Source: Yuukianura sp. NJ FZ-2021
Lineage: Eukaryota
DNA: 64,000 nt
Assembly (NCBI GenBank): GCA_046563655.1
Contig: CM102290.1
Span: 5,828,001 to 5,892,000 of the forward strand
Direction: 5' to 3'
Part shown: positions 87-57,500 of the stretch, piece by piece
Layout of the letters: the number at the start of each line of letters is the position of its first letter
Numbering within the stretch: the first letter of the stretch is position 1
Program-made: the position numbers and the translations under genes
Notes under the pieces: model-generated
Database searches by the model: none
Seen by the model: only the letters and a program-made list of their open reading frames with translations
Told to the model about the DNA's origin: nothing

Positions 87-200
87 AAAAATTTCTTCTT
101 GATGAAATCTAGCTAAGTGTCAGAAATATCTAAAAATTTCTTCTTGATGAAATCTAGCTAAGTGTCAGAAATATCTAAAAATTTCTTCTTGATGAAATCT
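87..200. repeat. 45-bp tandem repeat, 2.5 identical copies
   Basis: Unit aaaaatttcttcttgatgaaatctagctaagtgtcagaaatatct starts at 87, 132 and 177 (partial); a diverged single copy lies near 38184-38230. Confidence 0.9.
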
Positions 201-202
201 AC

Positions 203-3200
203 CAGTACAAATCATTTGTGCATCGATATGAAGTAGAACTCACCTCGTTTTCAATTTGGATGGAGTTGTCATCGTCACTCTCAGCCTCGTCATCTTGTTC
301 CTCCACTTTGAGTTCAGGAATGTCATAAATGGATCCACTCGAGAACTGAAGGACTTTCGGAACATGGTCATTCGCATCACTCACTCTCACGATCACTTTG
401 GTCATCGATGTCAAGTTCCCATCCGAAATGACAACGTCCAGGGTATGTTCGGGAAGGGCCTCCCTGTCCAAGGGTCCCCTCGTGGACATGATCCCTGTGA
501 CCCCATCAATGTCAAAGTAGGCAGAGGACGTCCTGAGTGAGAATCTGAGTTGCTCAGGAGAGTTATCACAATCGAAGGCATGGACAGTGAGGACAGGGAC
601 GGGCCCTTCAAGATTTTCCTCCACTGTGGCCAGGTACATGGGGGCCCTTGACAAAGGCACACAGTCGTTTTCATTCTCCAGTTCCACCACCAGGAAGCAG
701 TAGGCGACAGTGGACATGTCAAGGGCACTTTGCGCCTGGACAGTTAAATAGTGCCAGTGGGGCTGAGATTCGTAGTCCATGTCGTACATAGTTCGGACAG
801 TTCCGGCCGAGTCGATGCTGAAGAGGTACTGAGAGGGCCCTTGAAGGGACAAGTAGATGCCTGGGTAGGAGGACTGCTGCGGCTGAAGGGCCCCCACCGT
901 GGTTACGACAGATCCTACAGGGGCCCCTTCTCTTATGGACGCCACGACGACCAGCTCAGGGAAAGCAAGCGGCGGAAGAGGTTCCGGCACATCGTAAATC
1001 TGAAAAAAAAAATCAGTTTTTCTTGAAAATGCAAATTCACTTTTCAAAAAAGTTGTTCGGCACGCTTTCCAATTTCAGTTTTTGAAAAAGTTGTAAAAGT
1101 TGAAGTCCAAAGTCAACAAAAGCCCCCCGCCCGCCCGCACACAAACATTTGAGAAGGTAAACACCCGCCTCCGTTTGTATTGGAAGCTGCCACGAATAAT
1201 TGGATCCGGCACAAACTCCTCTCCGAAGAAAAAACTTTTACTTCCTTCCAGTTCAACTAATGACACAAACTTTTACATCCGCTCAATTCAAAACCACATT
1301 TTCAAAAAAAAAAGTGAAAAGAAACTCGTGTTTTCAAAATAAACTTCTAGAATGGCCCAACTTTTTTCTTCGTTTGTATTCCATTCACTCATTCTATTAA
1401 ATGTGTAGCCAAGAGTTCCGTTTTCTTAACTTTCCAACATGAAATATCCATTTCATTTTTTAAGTTGTGACTGACAAATTTTTTTTAAATTTTTTTTAGA
1501 TGATAAGCCTTCCGTTCAAGTTCAAAAAGTTCACTTCCCACCAAAAAAAATTTTTTTTTTCAAATGGCTTGATACGTCGTAAAAAATAAAAAGAAAAAAA
1601 TTTGACGAGAAAAAAGTTTCTCTTCCGAATTCAAAAAGTTGTGGGTCCGTTTAGAAATTTCCGATTTTTTTTTTGCTCATTGTACGTTTATAAGTTTCAC
1701 AATAAAATTTAAATGGTTTTAAAAAATATTTAAAAAAAAATTAAAAAAAAATTTTTTTTTGAAAAACAGAGTATGGAAAGTGTTTGTTTTGCACAAATGG
1801 GCCACTTGTTACAACTTTCTTTGCTCCGCGTGGTGAAAGTGTTTGTATAGAACGAGAGAAAGTTGGGTGAAAGCTGTGCACTTTCTCTCCTGATTTCATT
1901 AACTTTGAATTTAGTCCACAAAGTGATTAAGATTTCCTCTGACAACCAACAGCCAACACCCAAATTAAAATCTAGAAAATCCAAGGTTCCTAGAGCAATG
2001 AAATAGGTTTTGTTTAACAGGTTAGGGAAACAGATTGAGCGTTGACTTACCTCTATGACGATGAATGTCTCTGAAGCGAGGGACGGAGTGCCAAGGTCCT
2101 TGGCCTGAATTGTCAAATTGTACATGGACGTTCTCTGGTAGTCCAACTTCCGGTTCACTCTCAACACTCCCGAAATGTCGTCCACCACAAAGTCTCCTCG
2201 TCCACCGTCCACTAAAGCGTACCGGACGATCCCGCCGTCACCCAAGTCCGGATCTTCAGCCACGACACGGGTGACGACACTGTACAGAGGCCAATCCTCA
2301 CGCACTTTCACTACACGACTCTTCTGAACTGACCCGCCCAAGGTCACGGCGCCACTTCCGAAGTTCAAAAACTTGGGACTCTCGTCGTTCCGATCTTGGA
2401 CAACGACAGTGAGGACGGCAGTGGAGGATCGTCTCGGAGTCCCACCATCTTGAGCCACGACTAAAATGTCGTATCGATCCACTTTCTCGCGATCCAACTC
2501 TCCGATCAGTCTCACTTTCCCGCTCTTTCCATCGATACTAAAATTATGAAGAGATTCATTGAGGAGGCGATAGGAAACGACTGAATTCGGACTGCCCTCT
2601 TCATCCTCATCGAAGGCCTTCATCTCTGCAATTGTTTCTCCCGATAACTCATTCCCTTCACGAATCTGAATTTTCATCGCAGGTTTCAAAAATACTGGCC
2701 AATTGTCATTCTCATCCAACACCTACAAAATATTAGAAATTTTTTAAATTTTACCAATTTCCAAAGTGATAACAATTTTGAGTCATTTGAATTTTCAAAA
2801 TCATAATAATTTTCAAAATTCCAGAAATCCTGAAATTCCAGAACCTCCTTTTCCCAGAAAATGTGCAGGAGCGAAGAGTTTACCTCTCTATCACTTCCTA
2901 TTCCCAAAATATGAATTTTTAAAGTTTTTGAAAATTAAAATGAGTTTTGACAATTTAATATTTTGGAAACGGAAAGAGTTACAGACCTAATCTCAACAGG
3001 ACAAACTTTCAACAAATATAGAGAACCTTTAGAAAGTTTGAAAACTCGAATATCGAACATCAAATTTTTTGTCAAATTTTGAAAAAACAAAAAACAATGG
3101 ACTATAGTCCATGAATTATTTTTTTCGACATTTGGTCTAAATCTGAGGGTACTGAAAATCAGCACAGCGGAGTGGTTTAGTCTCCCACCTCAAAAAAGGT

Positions 3201-6200
3201 GGGAGGGGTGCGAAAACTACAGTTGTCGAATTTTTTTTTAGGAAACTGATACTTTTGTTATGTTTTGTTGTTATTTGGGCCGATTTGAAGTGGTTTTAAG
3301 TAGAATTTGGTTAGTTACCTTAATTGGGAGGAGTTTGGACATGGTTCTGGGTGGCTTGCCTTGATCAAAGAGTGAGATATTGAGAGTGTAGGATGGGAAC
3401 TCTTCACGGTCGAGTGGTCGAGCGACGACGAGCCACGCTTCCTGGACAGTGGCTCCTGTCCAGCTACTCGTCTCCACGCTCACAATGTCCCACGCCCCAT
3501 GACTCTCGTCTCCACCACAAATCACAAACTTCACCCACGCATTGTAACCTTTGTCCTTGTCAACTGCTTTCAACTTCACCACTCTCGTCCCCACTGCCAC
3601 ACTCTCGTTAACCTAAACACAAAACAAACAAATTAGAATCTGGGCCAATCACAAGCCTTTTTACAATCTCTGGACCAATCAGCAGCCTTTTTACAATCTC
3701 TGGACCAATCAGCAGCCTTTTTACAATCTCTACACCAATGAGGAGCCGATTCCTGGACTTTTGGCCAATCAGGAGTCGATTCACAGTGGAAAAACATTCT
3801 TGAAGTTTTGAGACAAAAGTTTACATGCAGTTTTCTGTCTCAAAACGTAGACTTTTTCCCACTGTGCGATTCCGTGACTTTTCACCAATAAGGAGTCGAT
3901 TCCTTGACTTTTGACCAACCAGAATTCGATTCTTTGACTTTTGACCAATCAGAATTCGATTCTTTGACTTTTGACCAATCTGAAGTTGATTCCTTGACTT
4001 TTCACCAATGAGGAGTCGCACAGTGAGAAAAAAGTCTTCTTTTTGAGACAGAAAATTCCCTTTAACTGTATGTAAACTCTTGTCTTAAAATTGCGACTTT
4101 TTTTTTGTATTGACAGTCACTTCCTTGACTTTTGACCAATCAGAAGTCGATTCCTTGACTTTTGACCAATCAGAAGTCGATTCCTTGACTTTTGACCAAT
4201 CAGGAGTGGAATCGACGCTTTGGGCAGGAATCGCTGACTCTTGTAAAAAGAAAGTCCAATTGTTGGAAGAGATTGATGATGATTTGAGTGGGGGTTTATT
4301 GAATGGTAGGGATTGACACGCCTCACTGACCTGCTCAGAGACTATTGAAGTAGAAAGGAATTTGTAAAATGATCGTCTTACCCGGATTTCTGAGGGAAAG
4401 TCCACAAAGTGAGGCTGAGTATTTTGAGCGTAGTGACTCGGCTCAGGCGGGAATCGGTTTTCCTCCAACTCCGTCTCATCAACTTTATTGTTCTCTTCGG
4501 ACAGAGCAGCCATGCGATCATAACGTCCTTGCACTCCCGTGTCCAGACACTCAAACACAGAATGCGAAGTGGAGTACACTTTGACCCCCGTCCGAGAAGA
4601 AGAGTCCGATTTATTGAAATTCGTCCTCAGAGAGTCACGAAGTTCAATTTTGATGGACATCACATCAGAAAAGTACTCTCCATCTCCCGCCGTGATGTTG
4701 AGCACTCGCTTCGCACTCCGGAAGTCCCTTAAGTCACACATTACTCTAAGGGCCCCCAAATTGTCCACGGAGAAGCACCCGTCAGAGTTGCCGTGCACAA
4801 TTTTGTAAGTGACTGGATCGTGATCGAAATCCAGAGCCACGACCCGCCCAAACTCAGTCTCGAAACTAATTCGTCTGTCAATTACACTCACACAGGAAGA
4901 GAAGATGAAGAGAGGGCGATTGTCATTGATCGGCACAACTGAAATTTGAAGTTTCATTTCCGACTCACGACGAAACGGTAATCCCCAGTCGGTAGCACGA
5001 ACTCTGGCGACGAAACTTCGACGACTCGATTCATAATCTAACACTTCCGTTGAGCGCACTTCGCCCGTAAAATGGTCAATTGTGAACGGCAAGTTGTTGA
5101 GATTGGCCATACTGTACGTCACGTACCTGAAACAAAAACGACATCAAAACGTAAACGACATAAAAACGTAAACGACGTAAAAACGTAAACGATATAAAAC
5201 GTAAGAAACGTAAAAACGTCAAAATTACGTTTTTTTTTGGAAATTACCCGTTTTCTCCTTGGTCATAATCTCTTGCATGGATTCTCGTAACGAGAGTTCC
5301 CACGGGTTCGTTCTCGGCAAAATAAACTTCCGTCTGATTCCCGGTTGACCCGCCGAGGTCAAACACTGGCCAAAACTTGTTTTCGTCAATCAACTTAATC
5401 ACGATCTTGACTGCCGAGCGGTGCCGACGAATGGTGTCGTATCGGGCGGGTCGAAGGTCAAGTGAGTCCACAGTTAGAGTGAAAATGGACTTGCGCTCAA
5501 AGTCAAGCCATTTAGCAGTGGAGAGGACGCCGGAGGGCGCCAATCGAAACTCCTCCCCCTCGTTTCCAGAGGAAATAGACAAAGTGACCTTGGGCGGGGG
5601 GCGGGGGAAGCGAAGGACCAAGGTTTGGGGGGGACTTGACTCGGAAATGTCCACTTCGTACAAGTCCTTGTCAAAGAGTGGCTGAGACACGAACGACGAA
5701 GGGCCCTCTGTCACCTTCAGCTCAAGTTCCTGCAAATAAATCATAATTTTGTACTTTTGGCGCCAAAAAAAAGTGTGAGAGTGCCATAAAAATTGTCTTC
5801 CACAAGCACAGATGCTGGAATCCCAAATTTCCAAAGTCATAAAGTTCAAGATTTTGGAGGGAGTAACTACGGGGTTTTCTGGCGGGTAGGGTTTGAAAGC
5901 CGGGTGAAAGTTGGTTTGTGGTGGGACTTGTTTTTATGTGATCTGGTGGGGCATGTGGTGGGAACAGTCATTTGACGAAAATTTCCCCGTTTTCATTACA
6001 CACAATGTCTTACCACCAACTGTGCCTCTGTTTCCTGGATTTCAATCTCACTTTGCCCCTAGAAAAGTGAAACATTGACCTTTGACCTCACCTTTTCAGA
6101 AGCCTTGGATGGCTGCCCTCCGTCTTCCGCTCGGAGAGTCAAGTTGAAGGTGGTTGATCTGGACGGTGGAGTGCGGAACGTGAATGTGTTGGCGACCACT

Positions 6201-9200
6201 GGCGACAAGACGACATAGAACTCATTTCGACTGGATGCTGGGAGCACTCGGAACATGCCGTTGGGGTCCCCTTCCTTGATTGTGAGGGTCACAAGGCCAC
6301 TGGGCCCTTCGTCATTATCACGACAAGACACGACGGCGTAAATCACTCCGTAAGGCCTCGTCTCCACCTCAAAAATCGCAAAAGTAAAATCGGAAGTTGT
6401 AAAAAGTGCATCAGTTACGAAAAGTTATCCATACTTAAGGAAATGCACAAACGTAAATTGTAAAAACGTAATTTGTAAAAACGCAAATTGTAAAAACCTA
6501 AATTGTGAAAACGTAAATTGTAGAAATGTAAAAATATAAATTGTGAAAGTGTTGTAATAATTTGAACCATGAAATGCTAAATTCCAAAAACATCTATTGT
6601 AAAAATATAAATTATAAAAAGTGTGACTTGTAAAACTCTTAACTGTAAAGAGGTATATTGCAAGATGCGTAAATTGTAAAAATGTAAAATGTAAATTGTA
6701 AAAAATGGTGTGTTGTGTATTTGAAGTGAGTGAGATTGATGGTGGATGGTTTGAGTTTTGTATTGGCTCACTTGTGGTGGACGATTAATTAGGATTTGTG
6801 GCGTGTGTCTGTTTGCAGGGCGAATGGAGACGATGGCTGTGGAGTCTGCTGCTGGTCCGAAGCTCCACCGATTCCTCGCCTGGATCTTGATGTGCTGTCG
6901 CTTCCCCACCAGCCCCACCAGAGATCTCGTGGGACTCACCACTCCCACAATCGGATCCACCGCAAAATGGGCATTCCACTCCGCTAAACTGGAACAGAGA
7001 GACACGATCGCCTCATTAGGATCTACCCGCTCTTATTAAGGGCCCTCCAACAGGGCTCCACAGTCCCCCGGGCAAACCTCCTTACAAACTTGGTCCCCGG
7101 TGGGCAAAACTGCAATCAGCTGACCACCAGAATCTCATTTCCTGAAACCCAGTGCCCAATGGGTAACATGGCTTGAGAAACAAAGAACGAGAGTGTAGAA
7201 AAATAATGGACCTAGTGGGATTCGAACCCACATCTCTTCTATCCGGGAAGCACTCTAACCCCTGAGTTATCAGGCTCTATTCTACATAATCTCAAAGGAT
7301 GGAGGAACTACAAGGCAGTTTAACCTGAAAAGTTCGTTCTGACTAAAATGGATCTGACCTCGGGTACCCGGGTGGGGAGTGGGGTTTTTGGTGGGCACTG
7401 TCTAACCCTGTTTTGCCCAACTTTAGAAACTCGTGTAATTTTCAATATGCATGAAGGATCAATGCGGGATGTTTTCATAAACTAGTGAAACGGAATATTT
7501 ACTTTTGAAATACTGCTGTTCCCACTTTCACCACAGTCAGCAACATCCTCCACAAACAAAGTTCTTGGCGCTAGGATTTGAAAGTTTTAATCTGGTGGGA
7601 GAGGAAGTGGGTCTTAAGCCACGAAACACGGTGGTGGTGGTGGGTTGGAGCCACCCCGTGGGTGGGACGAGGATATTAATTTAAAGTAATCGCCCCACCA
7701 CTCCTCGATTATCTTTTAATGTCTCTGGAAACGGCAGAGTCTCAACTTGCCCCAAACCCTCGTCCGCTCCCAGCATCCTCAAATTCTCTTTTTCCAACAT
7801 TACAAAAACTGTTCAAGTCGTGATCCGAATTTTGTTTCGAATTTAACACGGAGAGTTTAGCAGCAGAGCCTTTGGGCCAAGTTCGTGGCTGTTTTTGGCG
7901 CGTTTTTTGAAAGAAAAAAAAACGATTTTCGGTCGTAACGGCTTTGTGAATGGACATTTTGAAAATTAATTCTAGAACACACCAGGATTTTGAGTAGGGC
8001 TTAATTGAAAGATCTCAAACACAAATTTAAAAAAAAAATTTGGTGCCAAAACCGTTAGGGCTTTAACGTTAAAAATTCCGAACGGCAACTTTTGGCCTCC
8101 AAGCGAAACGTGCTGAAGCCTAAACTTTTTTTTTATGAAGAACAAAATCCGTTGATACACGCGCCAACATAAATTTGAAAACGAAAATACAAAAGTGGAA
8201 ATTTTTTCCGCCAAAATTTTGAAATTTGAAATGAGAATGAATTGTACCTGTAGTAGATTTCTTGATTCCTGCCAATATCTGCATCCACTGCAACTATTTT
8301 TGCAATTTTGGACAGAATTGGAACATCTTCGAGGACACTCATATCGTAAGTTCTCTGTTCAAACAAAGGACCATTGTCAGGTTGATCCAGAATTTGAATA
8401 TAGACAGTACACTCTGCAGTGGCCACTGGAACCCATTTTGTGTCCTCCACTAGGGGCGCACTGGTGGGTGGGTCCTTGGCCCCACCAGGCGGGGCCACAG
8501 TGGAAGTCGTTTGGAGCGTAATTGGAATTGGCACAATTGCTGACTCTGAACTCTGTTTTTTGTTTTTGCGTTTCGTCGATCCGTCACTCTTTGACTTGTT
8601 TCTGGGTTTGGTTCGACGCTCATCTCTTAGGTTTCGTCGAAGGAGAGATTTGGAAGATTTGGATTTTGAAAAACTTTTTGATTTTGAAATTTGAAATGTT
8701 TCATTTTTTCCAAAATTGGACAAAGGTGACCAGGAGTGGAGATCAAGCGGAAATTGGTCTGTGGTCTCTTCTGGAGGGAGGTCCAAGTACCTCTGCAGTC
8801 TTCTGGGCGAAGGGGTCCCCTCTGATTTCAAATCTCGAGCCACTTTGTTGACCCCCGTGGACAAAGGGCCCCCTGGGGGTCTCTCATCGTGGAGGGGGTT
8901 GACGGAGGGGGTCCCTTGCAGAAGCGTGGCCTTCACTCTAATTTTGTAGACGTCTTTGAACTCTCTGTTCAAACTGCGTTCGTTGTTGTTGACGCGCAGA
9001 ATGAGGAAGCAGAAGATGCCGACCTGCTTGGTTTCCACTCGAAAGAGCCTGAGAGGATCGCCGTCGATGATCTGCAGATCCACTTTGGCCGATGCATCGG
9101 TCCACAATCCCATCTTCTCCGTGGGGAGGACCAAGGTGGAGCCGAGGGAGTTCTCGGCCACCGATCCATTGTACACTGAGCGTGTAAACACAAACTGACC

Positions 9201-9299
9201 ACTCACACTTCGGCTGTCTTCGGATTCACTCGGATTCTCAAGAGGCTCAACAGACGTCGACACAATCAGCACCACTAAAGTCAACCAGCACAAACTCAT
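203..9299 (-). CDS. kug: Fat-like (Fat2/kugelei-type) atypical cadherin, N-terminal part; gene continues beyond the left edge
   Basis: Exons with GT-AG ends and consistent phases: 9299-8248, 6988-6772, 6367-6092, 5729-5248, 5126-4382, 3612-3319, 2722-2051, 999-203. Signal peptide MSLCWLTLVVLIVSTS, then cadherin repeats (LDRE, LDYE, DxNDNxP, AxDxD). N-terminus FVFTRSVYNGSVAENSLG...EKMG and LDYESSRRSFVARVRATDWGLPFRRESEM resemble Fat-like/FAT1-3 from memory. Cadherin call is secure; orthology is less so. Confidence 0.85.
3782..3866. mobile_element. 85-bp non-autonomous Transib-like MITE
   Basis: Ends CACAGTGG...CCACTGTG, internal inverted repeat ttttgagaca/tgtctcaaaa, perfect 5-bp direct repeat cgatt at 3777-3781 and 3867-3871. 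Confidence 0.7.
4019..4110. mobile_element. Second, inverted and partly decayed copy of the CACAGTG MITE
   Basis: cacagtgagaaaaaagtcttctttttgagacagaaaa...actgtatgtaaactcttgtcttaaaa matches the reverse complement of 3782-3866; right terminus is degenerate. Confidence 0.6.
6448..6705. repeat. Degenerate ~16-bp intronic tandem repeat (aaacgtaaattgtaaa)
   Basis: Repeated taaattgtaaaaa/aacgtaaattgt units in Fat-like intron 2; a similar aaaacgtaaacgac repeat fills the intron at 5135-5230. Confidence 0.7.
7209..7276 (-). mobile_element. tRNA-derived repeat (SINE-like), copy 1
   Basis: Reverse strand agcctgataactcaggggttagagtgcttcccggatagaagagatgtgggttcgaatcccactaggtc: A-box-like motif and GGTTCGAATCC B-box; degenerate cloverleaf. 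Confidence 0.65.
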
Positions 9300-11636
9300 C
9301 TTGCCACACCTTCAAAAGAAATCAAATTTTTAATTTACTTTAATTTATTAATTTTAATTAATTTTCACTCTCAATACAGTCAAATTTTCGATTTTGAATC
9401 TCAGTAGTACAGTACAAATCGAATTTGCATACTATCAATACAGTCGAAAGTCAAATTTTCACTTTGAATACTTTTTATGAAAAATTGGGAACAAGTTTTA
9501 AGAAATTCTGATTTGAAAAAAATTGTTTTTTGAAAAAATTGGAGACATGGAAGGTTTGCAGACGTTTCAAAAAAGTGTCAACTATGCCAACACATCAATT
9601 TTTGAAAAAATCGATTTGTGCTGTTGCACACTCCTGTCATTACTTTAAAAATTTAGCAGCACAAACAACTTTCTTGTTGAAAAACGTAACAAAAAAAAAT
9701 TAAAGTTGATGAGTAGTTGGGTTGAATGGAAAAGTGCTATCTGTGCATGGAGTGAACATGAATGCAAGTCTAAATGTTGGTTTGGAGGTCAGAGGTCAAC
9801 TGTAAACTGATTTCCATGTCTCTCAATGAGCATAGTCCATTAATCCAACTCCATTCCGAAAGCTACTTAATTACTCAACTCTTCCACTTCTGACTCATCA
9901 TCTCTCTTCAACTGGAAATACTTCCAAGCACAAAATACTTGCAACATGATATACTGGAAATACTTGCAACACGGTATGCTGGAAATGCTTGCAAGGACAA
10001 AACATTTGAAGGAAAGAAGAGAGAGACACGTCAGTTTCTGCTCCGAGTGAGAGGCGGAAGCGGGAAATTTTGATTTTTGTGAATCTGTTTTCCATTTTGA
10101 AAGAGAATTGGATGTTTTTGGGCGGATTGGACTCAACCTGTCACATCAAATCTTCTCAACTCTCTCATTTTTTCCCAACTTCGTCTTTGGCACGGAGGAA
10201 ATTAAGACAGAAACACTTTCTCCTCATTTCCCACATCCGCCGCTTCTTTTCTTTTTTTGAAAAATGGAACAGGAAAACGCCATTTTCTTTTCTCTTTTTT
10301 CACCCCGACGCCATCCCTTGTCAATGTTACTCCGCCCTTCAAAAAAAAACAACTCTACTGGAAAAGTTGAGAGACTCACTTCCATCTCAAAATCACTTTT
10401 CAAAATCACAACTTCCAAAATCAAAAGTTCCCTTTTCAATGCTGAGTTTTGTTTTAAATTTTAAAATTTCAAAAAACTTTTTAGTGGAAAGAAAGAAAGA
10501 CCTTGGTATTTTATGCAAAGTTTGGTGAAGGCCTCGTCACAGCGTGGTTCCGTTCCCATTTCAGTTGACAGGTTTCCTCCAAAGTGGTTTAGGCCAACTC
10601 ACATCCAATCAATACACAAACGGGACCGTCCACAAATTACGTCACCCCGACATGAGGGGGGGGGGGTTCTGATACCTCCCCCCCTTAGCTCAGGGTGACG
10701 TAATTCCGATACCCCCCCCCTATGTTACCTCGAAACTGTGTGGCGGAACTTAACATTTGACCCCCCCCCCACCAAAGAGGTCACTAAATTTGTGAATTTA
10801 TCGGAGGGGGGGGGGGGTTGGTAGCCTGGAGGTTCTGTGTCTGAGGTTGTGAATTGGGATCAAGGGATCGAATGCCGGTCGGAGTGACATGAATGGAAAG
10901 TGGATTGTGCTGTGGGGTGGATCTGGTGGTGACACGAAGACGTTCCATTCAACCTCAAACCAAATTACATGTCATTAGACAGGCTCTTCCACTAACTCTC
11001 GGAGGAAATATTGGAAGGGGGGTTCCACCACCTCCCCTCGGGGCATAATTTATGCACACATTAGAGAATGGGTGAAGGGAGAAGAAAGTGGAGAAAGTGA
11101 GGATTATTAACACAGTCACAATTTCACTCTCCACTTCCTCGCTCTTTTTACGGCCAACTAAATTTTCATTAATGATCACACACTATCTGTCCAAATTCAC
11201 TTAACCCCGGCTCAATTTTCACGTAATTTCCAAATTTTGCAAAACTGGAAATTTTCAAAAAAGGAAAAAAGTGAACATTGCACGAGTATGTTGGAAAGTG
11301 GGAACATAAAGCAGCCCCCACAAAGTGCTTTTGAGGGGGTCGATTAGTGGGTTGTGGTGGGGGGTAAAAGTGGAACAGATTCAATGATGATGACAATGGG
11401 CCACCATGCAGAATCTTGTGGTTCAACTGGAGCAGGGGAGGGGGGGGGGTCGGATGCACTTTGGCTCAACCCCCCCAGACATGTTCCAGATTAATCTCTG
11501 GAGATGCAGCGTCTCTAATCTTCCCAAAATTAAATTTCCCATCAACCCACACGCATAAACATTACCCACCACACTTCCAGCCACCACCAAAGTGTCATCT
11601 TTGTTCAAAGTGTTGCTCAATCGCTGGAGACCAATC

Positions 11637-40996: not shown

Positions 40997-43610
40997 TGGG
41001 AGTGAGCAGCCTTAATTGGTGTGTCCAAGGTGTTCCCAGGGGGATGAATTGGCCTTTGTTGTGAGCCACCACTTTTGAGAGTGGTTGGAGTGAAACTTGA
41101 GTAATTTATTGATAAAGTGGCTGGAGGGAGTGGTGGTTGACCCTGGGGCGAGTGGAGACGGGATCGAATCCACCTCGGTGGAGTCTGGCAGAAAAGTGGT
41201 ATCGATTTGGTGGGGCAGGAGGGGAGAAAGTTGTTGGAGGAGAGGGATGATGGGTCTGGTGAAAGCCTTCTTCTGTCTCAAAAACTTCCAACTTGGGGTC
41301 ATGCCCCGCCGATTACCAAAATCCACCGTTTTTTTAACATGACGCAAAAAATGGAAAAAGAAAGTGTCCGCTCCTGTCTCACTTTTAGTGACACTCAAAG
41401 TTATTCTCTGAGGAACCAACTTCTACAGTTTAAAAAAGACAAAAATTGTTGTTCGCTTTTTTCAAAAACTCAAAAAAAAAATGAAATTTGTGAACAGTTT
41501 TGTATTGGAGAAAGTGGTGAAAGTGGACTCTTCTAAACCTTGTTGTGGAAGGGTAGTTTTCCTCTCTTTTTTTGAATCCTCCCTCCTCTTTTTTGTGGTT
41601 GAGGAGAAGATGGTGGGGCAAGTTGAGACTTTGAACTTAAAAAGTGCCCCCAACGGGTACTTTTTTCCAAAGTGTACCCTTTGGGGGTACTTTTGTGCTG
41701 AAACTGACGGAAGGATATTTCGGTTGGATAAACAGTGAAAAGGGCTCCTTGAGCAGCAAAACCTCTTTTTGTCCCCCCACAAATCCAAGGGAGGGGAGAT
41801 GAAAAAACACAATGAGAGGGAGAAAAAGAGGGATCGGAGGATACAAAAACAGAGTGGGATTTTCCGCATCTCCGTGCACCCTTCGTACACTTTTCCACAC
41901 TCCCGTGTACACGTACACGTACACGTACACGTAGAGTGGAGAGGGTAGAGCTGGAATCAGGGCGGGTTAGGCCGAACGACCACCGATTTACCCCCTCTTC
42001 CTCTTTTTTATTTTTTTCCAAATTCCTCAGTTTTTAGTTCAGTCGTTGGGAGGGAAGGGGACTCAAAGGATCTCTCCACTTTCACTTACAATTGTATTTA
42101 CTTTACGTTTCCTAACTAACACAGTCATTTCTTACTCAAAGTGTCACAGTTTCAACTTACTCCCGGTGAATATCCCTGTTTTCAGTTGACCTTTGACCTG
42201 TCTCCAGTTGACCTTTGTGGCCAAAGGTCACGAGTGCCCGAGTTGTGATTTTGATCTTGTGATTTTTCCAATCTTCAAAAGAATTGTGGGGGCTGACTAA
42301 TAGTCGGAGTATTGTGCATGGAGTGAGTTTACGAAAAAACAGAATTTTGGAATCTCTCCCTCTCCAGTAGAATCCGCTCAACTTCTCGGTGAGTCACACT
42401 TTCTTCACTTTCATGCAAGTTAAGGTCAAGGTCAAAAGGTCACGCAAAGTCTGACTTTTGTGGAAGTCAAATTTGTCATCGTCAACTAACTTATTATGCA
42501 ACTCCAGAATTTCAAACATCAGTTTTTTGTTTTAAAATATCAAAGATTAGTTTTACGTTTTAAACTTTCAAAGATCAGTTTTTCGTTTTTTTTTGACATA
42601 AAATATGCTGTTGAACAAAGAATGAGAATTTGTCAGTGTTGGAAGTCGCTGAGTATGCGAGGTCAGTAATCGAAGTGACACAGTTTGCGAGGTCAGTGTT
42701 CGAAGTGAAGCATTTTGCGAGGTCATTGTTCGAGGTCATGGATTTTGTTACGTTAGTTTAGCATTGTTGAGTTTTGGAGGTCAGAGGGAGAGGTCATTTG
42801 CTTCGCATCTTCTTAGGGTTATAAAACCAAGGTTCACAACTTTTTTTAAAAAGGACGGAAAAGGGATTTTGTTCAAGATTTCTTGTGCCTTTTCGTAATT
42901 ATTGTTGAGATTGTGAGTGTTCGTTGGATTGAAGGGCCCTTCAAGGGTACCCTTGCATTCACTTTGGCATAAAACCCTACCAACACATTTCATTCCTCAA
43001 ACATCCTTTTTCTCAGGAAAAGAAGCCCTTTTTCCCCAGAAAATAAAAGATGAAGGGCTCTTTTTTCATTTGGCGAAAAGGGGCCCTTGGTCCTTGGAAA
43101 TTAAAAACCAGTGGCTTTACCTGAAGTTGCAGAGAGGCCTTGATCTTGTCCTCCCTTAAAGGGAGGCCCTTCAAGAAAAAGCAGAAGCTGGGGTGAAGGC
43201 CCCCTGCTCAGCCTCCCTCCGTTGACTCATCACGAGGCAAAAGAAGGAGAGAAAGAGGAGAAAGTCTCTCGGGACTTAAATTCCCCCACACATCTATCAA
43301 TTTTTACCAAAAAAGAAGTATTTTTATAAGAAGTTTTTGTACTAAAAATCATGATTTTTGGAAAATCAAAATTTGGGAATCTACTGGAAGTGAAATCAAA
43401 AAATTGAAAACGTCACGATTTCTTGTTTTTGACGCTTTTTTTGTGTTTAGACTTCCGAGAAGTTTTTGTTGGTGCTACTGAAGAGCGGGTTGAAGTGCGC
43501 AATCGCACGAGGGAGAGACTTCAAGTGTCGTGACGTCTGACCTCGTTCTGACGTCATATTGACATCGTTGTGACGTCATCGTGACGTCTTTGTGACCTTT
43601 TTGTGACGTC

Positions 43611-45081
43611 ATGGCTTCTGAAAAGTTGATGCGTGAGCAGGAACGGCGTGAAATGAGGCACCTCGTGACCTCGAGCGTCCCTTCGCCGCCCTTCAGTGGC
43701 CTCTCAATCCTCAATCCAGCCACTCTGTCCGTCTTCAGTTCTGATCCACGCGCAGTTCTGTCTGCGCATCTCTTCGCCAGCTACGCAGCAGCCAATCCGG
43801 AGGCAGGAAGGTTCCAGTTGCCCCTGCCCATCTCACTCGTCTCTCAAGGTCAGCCGATCTACCCCAAACCACCAACTCCCCCTCAGTTGGACATCATCTC
43901 GTCATGGGTCAATGACCACAAGGGCAAGACCAGGAAGAAGAGAGGCCCTTGGGACAAGGACCAAGGACCCACCAACCTCAGCAAGGACAGAGGTCAGGGG
44001 GAGCAGGGGGGCCCTTCGAAAGAGGAATCCAACAACAACAACAATGACAATTTGAACAAGAACCATTCCAATCAGGCGGCAAGGGACAAGCAGTTCACGT
44101 GCGAAGTCTGCAACAGAGGATTCGGATACAAACGTAAGTTTTCAAAATTTTGAAAAAAAGTTAAAAAAAATTTAGAAATTTCAAAAAACTTAAGCACTAC
44201 AGTGAAACGACAGTTGTAAAGTATCGCTAGCATCAGTTCGAGTGGCACGAGTTTCCAAAATTTCAAGTGCGACAAAAAATGGAAGTGTTTTGATGAAACT
44301 GGCACAAAATCACTTGAAGTTTGAATCTTTTGAGACTGATCAAAATAATTTTTTGTTGTAATTTTTAGACGTTCTGCAGAATCACCAGCGGACTCACACT
44401 GGAGAGAAGCCCTTCAAGTGCTCCATCTGCCCCAAAAAGTTCACAAGGGACCACCACTTGAAGACTCACATGCGACTCCACACCGGAGAGAAGCCTTACC
44501 GCTGTTCGCACTGTGACCGCCAGTTCGTCCAGGTCGCCAACTTGCGGAGGCACTTAAGGGTCCACACCGGAGAGAAGCCCTACGCCTGCGACCTCTGCAA
44601 AAATCGCTTCTCAGACTCCAATCAACTCAAGGCTCACATGCTCATTCACAAGGGAGAAAAACCATACAGTTGTGTCAACTGCGAAGGGCGCTTCAGACGC
44701 AGACACCACCTTCACAACCACAAGTGTGCCCTTAAGGATCCCCTCATGGACACAGGGTCCCCTCCAACTGAAACCAAGGCACGAGTACGCAAGTCACGAG
44801 AGACACGCAGAATCATTAGGATTGATACGCCGGGGGCCCTTGAGGGTCCCTTGACCTACCTTCCGGAAGTTCCCGAACAAACGCATCCCGAGGACTTGTC
44901 TACCCACAGTTTGAACTTGAGCAGCAGCCACTCCAGTTCTTCTGCGTCTCCAAGTCCCCTTAGCGGAGAATCTCAAGGGTCCCTTGGTCTGTACTCCGTC
45001 GAGAGTTCGGAGGGGGCCCCTTATTCCACGGATGACGACGAAGAGGGGGGTACTGAAAAGTCGGAAGACTCAGATGACTAA
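43611..45081 (+). CDS. Kr: Kruppel gap-gene C2H2 zinc-finger repressor
   Basis: Exons 43611-44133 and 44369-45081. Fingers [83 protein letters not shown] are Kr-diagnostic; C-terminal [10 protein letters not shown] (CtBP-binding motif). Probable non-coding first exon ~42040-42388 spliced to the acceptor at 43450. Confidence 0.96.
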
Positions 45082-47106
45082 AACACACAATTCAGAAACA
45101 TTCCAGGAGGGGGTACTTGAAAGTCGTTTTGACCTTGAGGTCAAAGGTCAGGGTGTTTGTTATTACGGGTTTTTAGTTTTATACGTGATATTTGAAATGA
45201 TTACCGGTTGAAACTAAGGAAAAAAGGAGAAAGTTCCATACTTTCTGTGATGATTTTTAGTTTGAGAGTTTAAACTTTTTAGTTGAATTTTGAAATAATC
45301 TTGTCCAATTTTACGGGTTTTTTTGTTTCATTTGGAACAAATTTAAAAAAAAATGAAGACAAGACAAAAAGTTATAGTTTGAAAGTACCTTAACAAAACT
45401 AAACGAAAGTTCCTCAATTAACATTTAATTAGCTTAAATTTAAAAAATTTAAATTTAAAACAGATTGATGCGGGTATAACTTTTTCAAAAAGATTTTGAA
45501 TTGAAGGAGAGAAGGAAAAAGGGTTTGCTCACTTTGAAATTTTAAGACTTTTTAGAAAAATCAAAAAGTATTTTTCTCGGAATTTTTTAAAAGTTAAAAA
45601 AAGTTCCTATTTTACTAACTTTTTTTTTCTGGCAACACTCAACATAACTTTTGGTGATGATTGACTATTCAAAAGACAAAAAGAAAAAAGAACTTCACGT
45701 TTCTTTTACGGGTATTTGTCTAGTTGAATACAAGTTGAAAAGTGTATTATAATAAGTGTTAGGTTAAAATTTTAAACTTAAAACGTCAAGTTAAAATGTT
45801 AGGTTAAAACATTGTTTGTGCCAAGAAACAAGTCCCGGTGAACTTTGTACTAAACGAGACGTGTCGTCCGTTAGAAAGAAATGCTAAGTTGTTTAGAATT
45901 TTAAACAAAACAATCTAAATTTTTAAAATATTCCTACCGGTGGTAAATTTTTCGGTGAAATATTTTCTTACAAAATTTTGAAACTTTAAAATTTTACACA
46001 AAAGAAATTGCCAATGTCAGGGAACAAGAAATTCATTTCACTTTTGACATGTTGACACTTTCGGAAGTCCAAACGTCAAAATTTCAACTTTTCTAGAATT
46101 TCAATGAATTTGATTAGCAAGTTTCAATTTCAAGAAATCCCTCAATTGACTTTTCATTTGAATTTGAACTTTTTCAAAAGATTAATCAAAATTTTTGATT
46201 GACGAGTGACAGGGGATCATAATTTTTTTTTTGTATTTTCCCCTTGATCGAGCTGAAAACTATTTTAGAATATGTAGGAATAGAATACAAAAAATAAATT
46301 TATTAAAATGTTATAAGTTTAAAATTTAAAATTAGAATTTAGAAAGTTGAAAGTTAAGGTGAATGTACAGAAAAGACGGGTCAAAGGTGATGAATTTACT
46401 CTCACAATGGAATCTTATTACGGGTATCACAATTGTAAAGGAATCAACTACCTCAACAACGGAATCTACCTCAATTATCTACATTTCCAAACTAATTAGT
46501 TAACACAACTATTAATTACAACTAATTAATTACTTTTACAACCAATTACTTTTGGTAATTCAAGTTAAGGAAACGTTGTCATTTGTAACTGGTAAAACGG
46601 GTCTTGACAGTTGTCAACTTACAATTAAAGTTTTATAACTTTAAGTAATTAAATAATATAATTAATTAATATGAAATTATATATTAATTCGTACACTCGA
46701 ATGTACATTAGGCAGCTGAATGGGACTAACTCACAATCTCAACACTCCTACCTCATTCCTAAGTTAATCAATTGAGTAATTAACCCGTAATAGTTAAATC
46801 ACATTAGAATAGAAAATTAAAAAAAAAGTTTTTTAAAGTGGGTATCTCAAATTTTCAAAAGATTTTCTTGGAAAATAGTTTAAAACTGTTTGAAAATTTG
46901 AAAGTTTGGTAATTTGGATGTTGTCAATCTGTATTTGTGTATAGTCTGTGAATGTAATACAATACATGTAATAAAGTATGTAATAATTGCAGATCCTTGT
47001 TTTTAGTTCCATTTCAATTGAACGTGACTCATGAGTCAAGAATCATGAGTCAAATGAGTCGAGGAGTCACAGATAGCGTGGGTAGATGATTGGCGGTGGA
47101 TTGGTT

Positions 47107-54578: not shown

Positions 54579-57500
54579 ATGGCGCACAAGGAAGTGGATC
54601 CGAAAGTTCGCGGGGTGAAGGGGATGCTCAGTCCCAACTTCACCTTCTACTACCCGCACCCACTGCCTCACTATGTTCAGGAACGGGTAGGACTTCTTTT
54701 TAACAATTTTTTCAAATTTTACGTTTTTTTTAAATTTTAAGTTTTTCATTATGTGGGTAACCGTGGAAACTAAACTTCGTTTTTGTTACGTTTTGTTTCT
54801 CTTTGCGCTTGGGAAAACAACCAATTTAGAATTAGAAAAGAAATGAGTAGTAGGCTAAAATTTTAATTGTGTTTTAGAATTAGGCTAAAAGAGTGTTTGA
54901 AATTACCTTTTTGAAAAATCCAAAGTGGTTTTTGGAAAAAGTAGTTTGAAGACTAAAAAGTGGATGGTCAGAGTTGGACTTTGGTTGAATTTAAGTACTG
55001 ACTGTTGAGGCTGAGTTGGAAGAGTGGCTTGTTGAAAGTCGTAACTTGGAACTGTAACTTCCAAAAGTACAATTCCAAGAAGTTGGTGTAATTTTAGTCA
55101 TTGAATGGACAATTAACAAAGTAAAGTAATTAACAAAGTGTTTGGAGAGTAATTGTTTTGGCCGTGAGTGGACCAATTCCAACATAGGCATTGACCCACT
55201 TCCACAAAATGCTGCTTCAGCACTTTTTAGAAAAAGTGGATCTACTGGAATGTGGAGAGTAGAAGTTAAAAGTGTTAATTTCAATTAGTAATTAGTTGAG
55301 TCGAAATGGGTAACAGCGTTGGAAAGGAAAGCAAGTGGAGGCGGTTCGGAATTCAACTGTTCCGGACCAAAAAGGCCGTTGACAAATTGGTCAGAAGTGA
55401 CTGGACTTAAAAACAAATTCCATTTTAACAAAAAGTGTTCCAATTTTGTACTAATTTTCATAATTTTTTGAAACAGTTTCATATGGGTAAAGAAATGGAG
55501 GACGATGACTCGGGTGAATCCAGTTCTTCGACTGAGAAGAACGTCATTGTCGGGATCTGCGCAATGGCCAAGAAGTCTGGCTCAAAACCCATGCAGTCCA
55601 TTCTCACTCGACTCGAAGAGTTTGACTACATCAAAACAATCATCTTCGCAGAAGAAACCATTCTCAAGGTACATATTTTCAAATTTGAATTCTAGTTTGG
55701 AAGAAAAAAAAAAAGAACCGAGTGGGACTCGAACCCACATCGTTTCAATCTGGAAAGAGCTCTAACCATTGACCTACCCAACTCTTTTTTTTTAATTTCA
55801 GGAGCCGATTGAAGACTGGCCAATCGTAGACTGCCTCATTTCGTTCCACTCTAAGGGATTTCCATTGGAGAAGACAATGAGTTATGCTAAACTGCGGAAT
55901 CCCTTCATCCTCAACAACATTGAAATGCAATTTGAGCTCCAAGATCGTCGCAAAGTGTACTCAATTCTGGAGGAGGAGGGAATTCTACTCCCGAGATACG
56001 CCATTCTAGACAGAGATTCTACAGATCTAACTAAAAGTAAGAAAGTTGGGATATCTGCGGATTCTGAGGAAAAGGGCCTCATTTTTTAAGTTTTCAGTGC
56101 ATGAGCTGATAGAGTCTGAGGATCACATTGAGGTGAATGGAGTTGTGTTCAATAAGCCGTTTGTGGAGAAGCCAGTCTCCGCTGAGGACCATAACATTTA
56201 CATCTACTACCCAACTTCAGCTGGAGCCGGAAGTCAGCGTCTCTTCAGAAAAATTGGGAGCAGAAGTAGTGTCTATTCGCCTGAATCGCGTGTACGAAAA
56301 ACTGGATCCTTCATCTACGAAGACTTTATGCCAACGGATGGAACTGACGTCAAGGTCACTCTCAAATTCTCAACTTCTTAAAACTTTTTATGAAAAGTTT
56401 TTTTGAAAAGTTGTGTTGAATGTTGATTATTTAGGTATATACTGTTGGACCAGACTATGCACACGCTGAAGCCAGAAAGTCTCCTGCTCTGGATGGAAAA
56501 GTGGAGCGAGACAGTTGCGGAAAAGAGGTGCGATATCCTGTCATTTTGACTGCTGGAGAAAAATTGGTCGCCAGAAAAGTTTGTATGGCTTTCAAACAGA
56601 CTGTTTGTGGATTCGACTTACTCAGGTGAGGTCAAAGGTCAAAGGTCAACGTTTTTGAAAAACTCCTCATTTGTGGATTTTAGGGCCAATGGAAAGTCGT
56701 ACGTGTGTGATGTGAATGGGTTTAGCTTTGTGAAGAATTCGAACAAGTACTACGACGACTGTGCCAGAATACTGGGCAACATGATACTGCGGGAGTTGGC
56801 TCCTCAGCTACACATTCCCTGGGCAATTCCCTTTCAACTCGACGATCCACCCATTGTTCCCACCACTTTCGGAAAAATGTAACTTTTGCAATTTGTTTTT
56901 TGAAATTTTTGGAAAAATGGAATTTTGTATTGTTGGTGATTTTGTGTAGGATGGAACTTCGATGTGTTGTTGGAATTATTCGACACGGAGACCGAACGCC
57001 GAAGCAGAAAATGAAAATGGAAGTTCGTCATCCAAAGTAAAAAGTTAAATTTTGGAATGTCGGAGATTGGGTGAACTTTTAATTTTTAATTTGTGTGTAG
57101 GTTCCTTGAGCTGTTTGAGAAATATGGTGGCACTCCTGAGAATAATGTGAAGCTCAAGAAGCCGAAACAGCTCCAGGAAGTGTTGGATATCGCGAGGTTT
57201 CTTCTCTTTGAAGTCAAACACTCGGAGGGAGAGCGGGAGTTTGAAGAGAAGCGCGGAAAACTGGACCAATTGAAATGTGTTCTCGAAATGTAATCCAATT
57301 CCTCTAGTTTTTTTAAAAGCGTTCTCATTTTCAACATTTTTGTGAACTTTGATAGGTACGGGTATTTTGGAGGAATCAACCGGAAGGTGCAGCTCAAGTA
57401 CCAGCCAAAAGGTCGTCCAAGGGGCACGAGCAGTGATGACGGTGAGAACCACAGTTCGTTGACCTTGTCCTTACAAACTGGACTTTTGATCTTCTGACCT

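Follow-up and report, generated by a model that had tools for sequence, protein, structure and literature searches.

What does a cluster of TACGGGT words do downstream of a Krüppel (Kr) gene? The question arises in a 64,000-nucleotide (nt) stretch of contig CM102290.1 from the Yuukianura sp. NJ FZ-2021 assembly GCA_046563655.1 (positions 5,828,001 to 5,892,000 of the forward strand; the whole stretch is hereafter the window). An initial annotation of this stretch had noticed the repeated word and had offered two readings of it, namely an array of target sites for the microRNA miR-100, or DNA sites through which Kr regulates its own gene. Kr belongs to the gap genes and acts as the second factor in the temporal series of neuroblasts, and miR-100 is among the most conserved and oldest of animal microRNAs. 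To our knowledge, miR-100 has almost no agreed targets outside the vertebrates, and few validated ones in invertebrates. In the analysis described here, the interval of approximately 1.9 kilobases (kb) that follows the Kr stop codon is best read as a 3' untranslated region (3'UTR) that is probably repressed by miR-100 and let-7 together. The sites can be read directly from the DNA, as can their bias to one strand, their enrichment and the conservation that Kr orthologues show; all are set out below, with coordinates in Table 1.

The gene itself lies on the plus strand in two coding exons. When the two exons are joined, a single open frame of 411 amino acids results, in whose translation FGYKH|VLQNH spans the junction. 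The protein encoded by exon 2 matches many entries named "protein krueppel-like", including one from the barnacle Pollicipes (82% identity over the fingers) and many from beetles. Long stretches of the C2H2 fingers, FRRRHHL included, are invariant among the aligned proteins of this name, which is the Kr-specific finger pattern. Additionally, a PEDLSTH box lies C-terminal of the fingers and fits the form PxDLSxH, a CtBP-type box, and the core (Q)TEPEDLS is common to most of the aligned Kr-named or Kr-like proteins, recurring in five Kr-like loci from metagenome contigs (L001 to L004 and L007, introduced below). Kr-h1, a different gene, has eight fingers and is responsive to juvenile hormone. 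Because of the invariant finger stretches and the PEDLS box, we accept the gene as the predicted orthologue of Kr and not of Kr-h1. A longer protein search with the Kr query returned only poly-zinc-finger proteins.

Downstream of this gene, TACGGGT stands on the sense strand at 45164, 45312, 45707 and 46419, each copy preceded by T, just as initially annotated. A follows the copies at 45707 and 46419, which are thus 8mers of the form TACGGGTA. The variant with a G:U-type pair at 45469 (TGCGGGTA), the shorter ACGGGT cores at 46376 and 46597, and one antisense copy, at 46783-46789, were also found as annotated. Outside the cluster the window holds two further copies, at 57357 (+) and 59065 (-), whereas only the first of these had been listed. 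Absent from the initial annotation were three 8mer matches to let-7 (CTACCTCA) in the same interval. The canonical seed matches therein thus comprise two 8mers, two 7mer-m8 sites and two 6mer cores for miR-100, and three 8mers for let-7, all predicted sites being on the sense strand between +82 and +1666 after the Kr stop codon. The seeds of let-7 and miR-125 used for these calls are those that we take to be theirs. The microRNAs miR-99 and miR-100 have the same seed. UACGGGU is a validated site of miR-99a, in PCSK9, according to passages of PMC11611869. A contribution of miR-125 to the core signal was considered and rejected, since its matches amount to one 7mer-A1 (46017) and one 6mer (45148) and L001 keeps neither.

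Both words are strongly overrepresented in the interval. On the sense strand of 45084-46995, compared with 20,000 dinucleotide-preserving shuffles, TACGGGT occurs 4 times against an expected 0.055, CTACCTC 3 times against 0.014 and the let-7 8mer 3 times against 0.0057, and none of the three counts was reached in any shuffle. CTACCTC and TACCTCA first emerged from a count of all 7-mers. When every 7-mer of the same stretch is ranked, TACGGGT is first and CTACCTC second under a first-order Markov model, and CTACCTC is first and TACGGGT fourth under a second-order model. Among 8-mers, both models put TTACGGGT and CTACCTCA in the first two positions. Because the ranking covered all 7-mers, the two words stand out without having been chosen beforehand. 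Over the whole window, enrichment is modest for TACGGGT (7 against 2.66 expected, a count reached in 1 of 100 shuffles) and nil for the 6-mer ACGGGT (16 against 17.0), of which 7 of the 16 copies fall within 45165-46788. The context common to the TACGGGT copies is T-rich and extends over just 14 nt, which argues that they are not parts of a longer duplicated unit; a longer repeat or a transposon around the sites was rejected for this reason.

The same words recur behind Kr in other genomes. A scan of metagenomes with a Kr alignment gave 79 loci, of which six are Kr-like (L001, L002, L003, L004, L005 and L007) and the remaining 73, which carry other zinc-finger genes, served as controls. L001 comes from a close relative: it matches the whole of exon 2 at 77% identity, keeps the order from Kr to the next gene, ABCE1, and is 96.7% identical in the ABCE1 segment. 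The Kr orthologues in L002, L004 and L007 are less closely related, and their downstream regions are counted as independent because they cannot be aligned to the window. In each of these four loci, the 2 kb that follow the stop codon include a sense TACGGGT. Pooled (7,564 nt), they hold 6 sense and 0 antisense copies of TACGGGT and 5 sense and 1 antisense copies of CTACCTC, to be set beside 4:1 and 3:0 in the window. Altogether, the two words are found 18 times in sense and 2 times in antisense. In the control loci (n = 73; 339,681 nt), TACGGGT occurs at 0.0177 and CTACCTC at 0.0353 per kb per strand, and calculation from the pooled counts of the window and the four loci gives a sense-strand enrichment over controls of about 60-fold and 24-fold, respectively. 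When the number of downstream regions that hold a given 7-mer is compared with the Markov expectation of each region, TACGGGT ranks first of all shared sense 7-mers, being present in 5 of 5 loci (p = 4e-8). It remains first when either L001 or the window is dropped (4 of 4, p of about 7e-7), and also when all seven Kr-like loci are taken, L003 and L005 included (5 of 7, p = 2.4e-7; its reverse complement is present in fewer than two). Behind the motif, A is the base most frequently retained, and 4 of the 5 loci have CGGGTAT. Both strands of the 2 kb upstream of Kr were free of TACGGGT and of the let-7 word in all 4 loci that were examined.

Retention of individual positions was assessed against L001, to which the interval can be aligned with 54% identity in aligned columns and with 4.3% of 7-mers conserved in register. 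Of the six ACGGGT cores, five are matched in L001 by an identical core no more than 10 nt from the aligned position, compared with a background of 9.4% (p = 4e-5), and both TACGGGTA 8mers are kept (p = 1.5e-3). The block TATTACGGGTAT is one of nine blocks shared by the window and L001 that have at least 10 identical bases. Conservation of the predicted miR-100 sites is thus above that of the surrounding UTR, both in their retention in L001 and in the rank of TACGGGT as the top 7-mer shared by the orthologues. The comparison of strand bias and conservation in orthologous Kr downstream regions, which the initial annotation had recommended, therefore came out in favour of its target-array reading, which the three adjacent let-7 8mers, the sense bias, the recurrence in four other lineages and the positional conservation in L001 all support at the level of sequence.

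The two kinds of site also lie close to each other. In 4 of the 5 loci, a canonical miR-100 site and a let-7 seed match are no more than 40 nt apart (30, 36, 36 and 10 nt), a proximity with p = 0.004 relative to random placement of let-7 matches, in which the window and L001 are non-independent and two of the let-7 matches are only 6mers. Sites for the two microRNAs co-occur in the window, L001, L004 and L007. At 46419-46473 in the window, sites are 29-47 nt apart, and a spacing of 29-47 nt is one that favours cooperative action of microRNAs. In the mechanism that we propose, the let-7 complex would turn on late in development, Argonaute carrying miR-100 and let-7 would bind the sites in the Kr 3'UTR, and binding would lower both the translation and the stability of Kr messenger RNA (mRNA), whereby Kr, an early gap and temporal-identity transcription factor, would be cleared. 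In other animals, the let-7 complex is the joint transcript from which both microRNAs come. Passages of PMC3545287 describe the co-transcription of let-7 and miR-100 in flies. A broader proposal, that Kr is an ancient and conserved target of the let-7 complex and that miR-100 and let-7 cooperate on the paired sites to silence Kr across several arthropod lineages, is put forward tentatively, as a conjecture that may well prove too wide.

How far the Kr transcript extends bears directly on this interpretation. The interval 45084..46990 contains no open reading frame of at least 100 amino acids. AATAAA at 46293, already noted in the initial annotation, is present, and within 2 kb after the Kr stop codon there are six AATAAA or ATTAAA hexamers, which in DNA so rich in A and T are too frequent for the 3' end to be placed from them. 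Conservation of the distal module 46376-46755, which lies past the AATAAA at 46293, suggests a longer UTR or a long isoform.

Several observations weigh against repression of Kr by miR-100 and let-7. Both the miR-100 8mer that is best conserved (46419) and the full set of let-7 8mers fall past the first AATAAA (46293). An mRNA that would span all sites, the expression of miR-100 and let-7 in this organism and the repression itself are inferred from the DNA. The let-7 component is the less constant of the two: only one of the three window sites (46466) is in place in L001, where a second site lies elsewhere, which suggests that let-7 sites undergo turnover between the window and L001; across loci, TACCTCA ranks 14th and CTACCTC 27th of 2,234 shared 7-mers; and L002 is without a let-7 site within 2 kb, the nearest being at +2382. 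The matches to miR-125 are weak and not conserved. As to the loci compared, the window and L001 are close relatives and so not independent, L002, L004 and L007 are known from metagenome contigs only, L003 is uninformative, with just 242 nt of sequence behind the stop codon, and L005, a divergent and truncated Kr-like paralogue, has no sites.

Other readings of the cluster have to be weighed against these data. Strand specificity and conservation point to an element that works in RNA without naming its reader, and the presence of miR-100 in the organism is itself only inferred, so that the reader could be a protein that binds RNA, or a small RNA that is specific to the lineage and has this seed; the resemblance to miR-100 would then be coincidental. 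We regard this as unlikely. The conserved unit is exactly 7-8 nt, as for a seed site, with T opposite position 8 and frequently A following, and we know of no RNA-binding protein with specificity for TACGGGT. Additionally, the motif adjoins seed matches of let-7, the microRNA with which miR-100 is co-transcribed in flies (passages of PMC3545287).

The second reading put forward in the initial annotation, in which the TACGGGT copies are DNA sites for Kr protein (autoregulation) or for another factor, in an enhancer 3' of Kr, appears decidedly improbable. Conserved non-coding islands could equally be enhancer elements, and the status of the interval as UTR derives from sequence. However, none of the four sense copies matches AANGGGTTAA, which we take to be the Kr consensus, at one mismatch or fewer; the antisense copy TACGGGTTAA (46780-46789) alone fits, at 9 of 10 positions, and it is not conserved in L001. 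Matches to AANGGGTTAA number 14 in the window, fewer than the 26.5 of the shuffles. The 18:2 orientation of the words in the five loci is not the orientation independence expected of DNA sites, the base that usually follows the motif is A (CGGGTAT, 4 of 5 loci) whereas the Kr consensus requires TTAA, and the second co-enriched motif is a let-7 seed match and not a Kr-like word. A chance origin, or one from short duplications or the local base composition of AT-rich DNA, could appeal to the modest window-wide enrichment (7 against 2.66, with 1 of 100 shuffles reaching 7), to the 14-nt T-rich context common to three copies and to the motif having been picked after the sequence was read, but it is very unlikely in view of the local count that 0 of 20,000 shuffles reached, the top rank when all 7-mers are scanned, a ranking that corrects for post hoc choice, the recurrence in three unalignable orthologous regions and the positions kept in L001.

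Further short words are shared by the regions downstream of Kr. AGTTCCT, presumably a miR-276 seed match, is found in sense in 4 of 5 Kr orthologues (the window, L001, L004 and L007), with no antisense copy in these downstream regions. A K-box word, CTGTGAT, which we take to match the miR-2 family, lies inside a conserved 13-nt block. CCGGTG (45830-45840 and 45934-45943 in the window) is in sense in 4 of 5 downstream regions, again those of the window, L001, L004 and L007, and never in antisense; ACCGGTG is the second most shared 7-mer downstream of Kr, and the CCGGTG core is presumably complementary to the CACCGG seed of the miR-35/36 family. At 45525-45550, the window and L001 share the conserved block TTTGCTCAC.TTGAAATTTTAAGACTT, of which 17 nt are identical and which includes TTGCTCA, which we assume to be the miR-87 seed match. 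These words suggest that the Kr UTR may be a hub for several microRNAs.

Repression of Kr by miR-100 and let-7 would have parallels in known systems. In C. elegans, let-7 reportedly represses hbl-1 (hunchback-like) and lin-41 via multiple 3'UTR sites, in work attributed to Reinhart (in 2000), Abrahante and Lin (both in 2003). As there, a heterochronic microRNA would act on a seed-matched 3'UTR array in an early transcription factor of the gap or temporal series, but here the target is Kr and not hunchback, the array combines let-7 with miR-100, and the case is known from its sequence. In Drosophila, chinmo is said to be a target of the let-7 complex, a result attributed to Wu et al. in 2012. 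The likeness to the fly targets is that several cluster members can act on one UTR; unlike the published fly cases, which reportedly depend on let-7 and miR-125, the Kr array has its strongest signal for miR-100 and almost none for miR-125. Passages of PMC3545287 name abrupt as a further target of the complex in Drosophila. Insect Kr-h1 is controlled by let-7, miR-278, miR-2 and miR-927, as titles in the reference lists of PMC10094939 and PMC11277110 indicate. That system likewise brings together let-7, developmental timing and a zinc-finger factor whose name contains "Krüppel", whereas the gene in the window has the fingers of the gap gene Kr and a PEDLSxH box. In vertebrates, the miR-99/100 site in PCSK9 is the same seed-match word (passages of PMC11611869), and let-7 and miR-9 target early temporal transcription factors according to a preprint (bioRxiv 10.64898/2026.10.02.755877), in which, as proposed here, rising microRNAs remove early temporal factors. 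The vertebrate systems differ in targets and phylum, and sites are single there, compared with 4-6 per UTR here.

In the titles and abstracts searched, the gap gene Kr was not found as a microRNA target, whether of miR-100, of let-7 or of any other; target-prediction tables (TargetScanFly) and subscription journals lay outside that search and could hold a prediction for fly Kr. The passages seen that mention Krüppel concerned Kr-h1 or gap-gene patterning only, and nothing useful was found on springtail microRNAs. Kr would then be a multi-site microRNA target among the genes of developmental timing. If kept across lineages, such a target would give miR-100 a testable developmental role, and a direct link between Kr and the let-7 complex would join the hormonal and heterochronic timer to the intrinsic cascade of temporal transcription factors. 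The paired sites would offer a natural case for cooperation of co-transcribed microRNAs on one mRNA. Together with let-7 and hbl-1 in worms, the link would, if true, mean that the hunchback/Krüppel temporal series has been a target of heterochronic microRNAs from early in the evolution of ecdysozoans.

Table 1. Features of the Kr locus in the window, and predicted sites downstream of Kr in the metagenome loci (positions of the latter are counted from the stop codon).
Feature	Position	Strand	Remark
Kr coding exon 1	43611..44133	+	ATG at 43611; exon end falls within the first zinc finger
Kr intron	44134..44368	+	GT...AG, 235 nt
Kr coding exon 2	44369..45083	+	TAA at 45081-45083; Kr-type fingers and PEDLSTH box
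Putative Kr 3'UTR	45084..46990	+	about 1.9 kb, 28% G+C; bounded by AATAAA at 46970 and the upstream region of the next gene (from about 47020)
miR-100 7mer-m8 (TACGGGTt)	45164..45170	+	degenerate in L001 (TTACGGTC)
Stretches with further shared sense words (AGTTCCT, CTGTGAT)	45226-45252, 45408-45414, 45602-45609		
miR-100 7mer-m8 (TACGGGTt)	45312..45318	+	ACGGGT core at the aligned place in L001, as cACGGGTt
TGCGGGTA, non-canonical, G:U wobble at seed position 7	45469..45476	+	not conserved in L001; low weight
miR-100 8mer TACGGGTA	45707..45714	+	adjoins conserved block TGTCTAGTTGAAT; kept in L001 at stop+676
miR-125 7mer-A1 (TCAGGGA), weak	46017..46023	+	not conserved in L001
Proximal AATAAA	46293..46298	+	possible poly(A) signal of a short isoform
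miR-100 6mer core (gACGGGTc)	46376..46381	+	positional counterpart in L001 is a 7mer-A1
miR-100 8mer TACGGGTA	46419..46426	+	within 12-nt block TATTACGGGTAT, identical in L001
let-7 8mer CTACCTCA	46448..46455	+	29 nt after the miR-100 8mer; position not kept in L001
let-7 8mer CTACCTCA	46466..46473	+	conserved in register in L001
miR-100 6mer core (aACGGGTc)	46597..46602	+	at the end of about 28 conserved nt; 92.6% identity over 27 nt
let-7 8mer CTACCTCA	46748..46755	+	position not kept in L001
Antisense TACGGGTTAA	46780..46789	-	sole copy fitting the assumed Kr DNA consensus, 9/10; not conserved in L001
Distal AATAAA	46970..46975	+	candidate end of the long UTR
ABCE1/pixie, next gene	start 47290	+	downstream of Kr, same strand
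L001, miR-100 sites	8mers +676, +1328; 7mer-A1 +1287; 7mer-m8 +1658		
L001, let-7 sites	8mers +1363, +1436		
L002, miR-100 sites	8mer +50		
L002, let-7 sites	8mer +2382		only site
L004, miR-100 sites	7mer-A1 +149; 7mer-m8 +981		
L004, let-7 sites	7mer-m8 +544, +1304; 8mer +1132		
L007, miR-100 sites	7mer-m8 +516		
L007, let-7 sites	7mer-A1 +656, +819		
L005, miR-100 sites			none
L005, let-7 sites			none

Some of the compared loci have features of their own. In L005 (5920-6297), the finger linkers are altered and the PEDLS box is missing, and the 1,861 nt downstream contain no miR-100 or let-7 site, making it a natural negative case. L004 (1-10693) is a contig with 52% G+C in which Kr is a single open frame of 702 amino acids whose first finger is not interrupted by an intron. 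Two copine genes in tandem lie upstream of this Kr gene, and the 14-nt word GCTACTACCTCTTT is common to both let-7 7mer-m8 sites of L004. In a collection of prokaryote genomes, no Kr orthologue was found, the best match being 55% identical and all matches being generic C2H2 proteins. Many C2H2 zinc-finger open reading frames of this collection (L080-L149; labelled Endozoicomonadaceae, Kistimonas, Babeliales or Pseudomonas) are 40-55% identical to the Kr fingers.

Two other word clusters lie on either side of Kr. Immediately 5' of the Kr start codon, the CRE/ATF-like word GTGACGTC occurs four times within 81 nt (43530-43610), out of 5 copies in the whole window against 1.1 expected; at the corresponding place, L001 has no evident cluster. 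ATGAGTC (AP-1-like TGAGTCA) occurs four times at 47026-47060, in copies that overlap or adjoin, between the Kr 3' region and ABCE1; they may belong to the ABCE1 promoter, and no such cluster was found at the corresponding place in L001. In ABCE1 itself, a segment of 92 amino acids has springtails as its closest named relatives (Allacma fusca 90%, Orchesella 84% and Folsomia 84% identity), and proteins from metagenomes reach 95%. On the strength of this single short and conserved segment, the organism is probably a collembolan.

Near the start of the window, long open exons on the minus strand (199-9311) belong to a cadherin-like gene, as judged from translation only. An Rfam scan of the 64-kb window returned a transfer RNA (tRNA) only. 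This tRNA, of 71 nt, lies among the cadherin-like exons on the minus strand (7207-7277), scores 36.2 bits against the Rfam tRNA model and is called tRNA-Ser(GGA) by ARAGORN, for which it is short.

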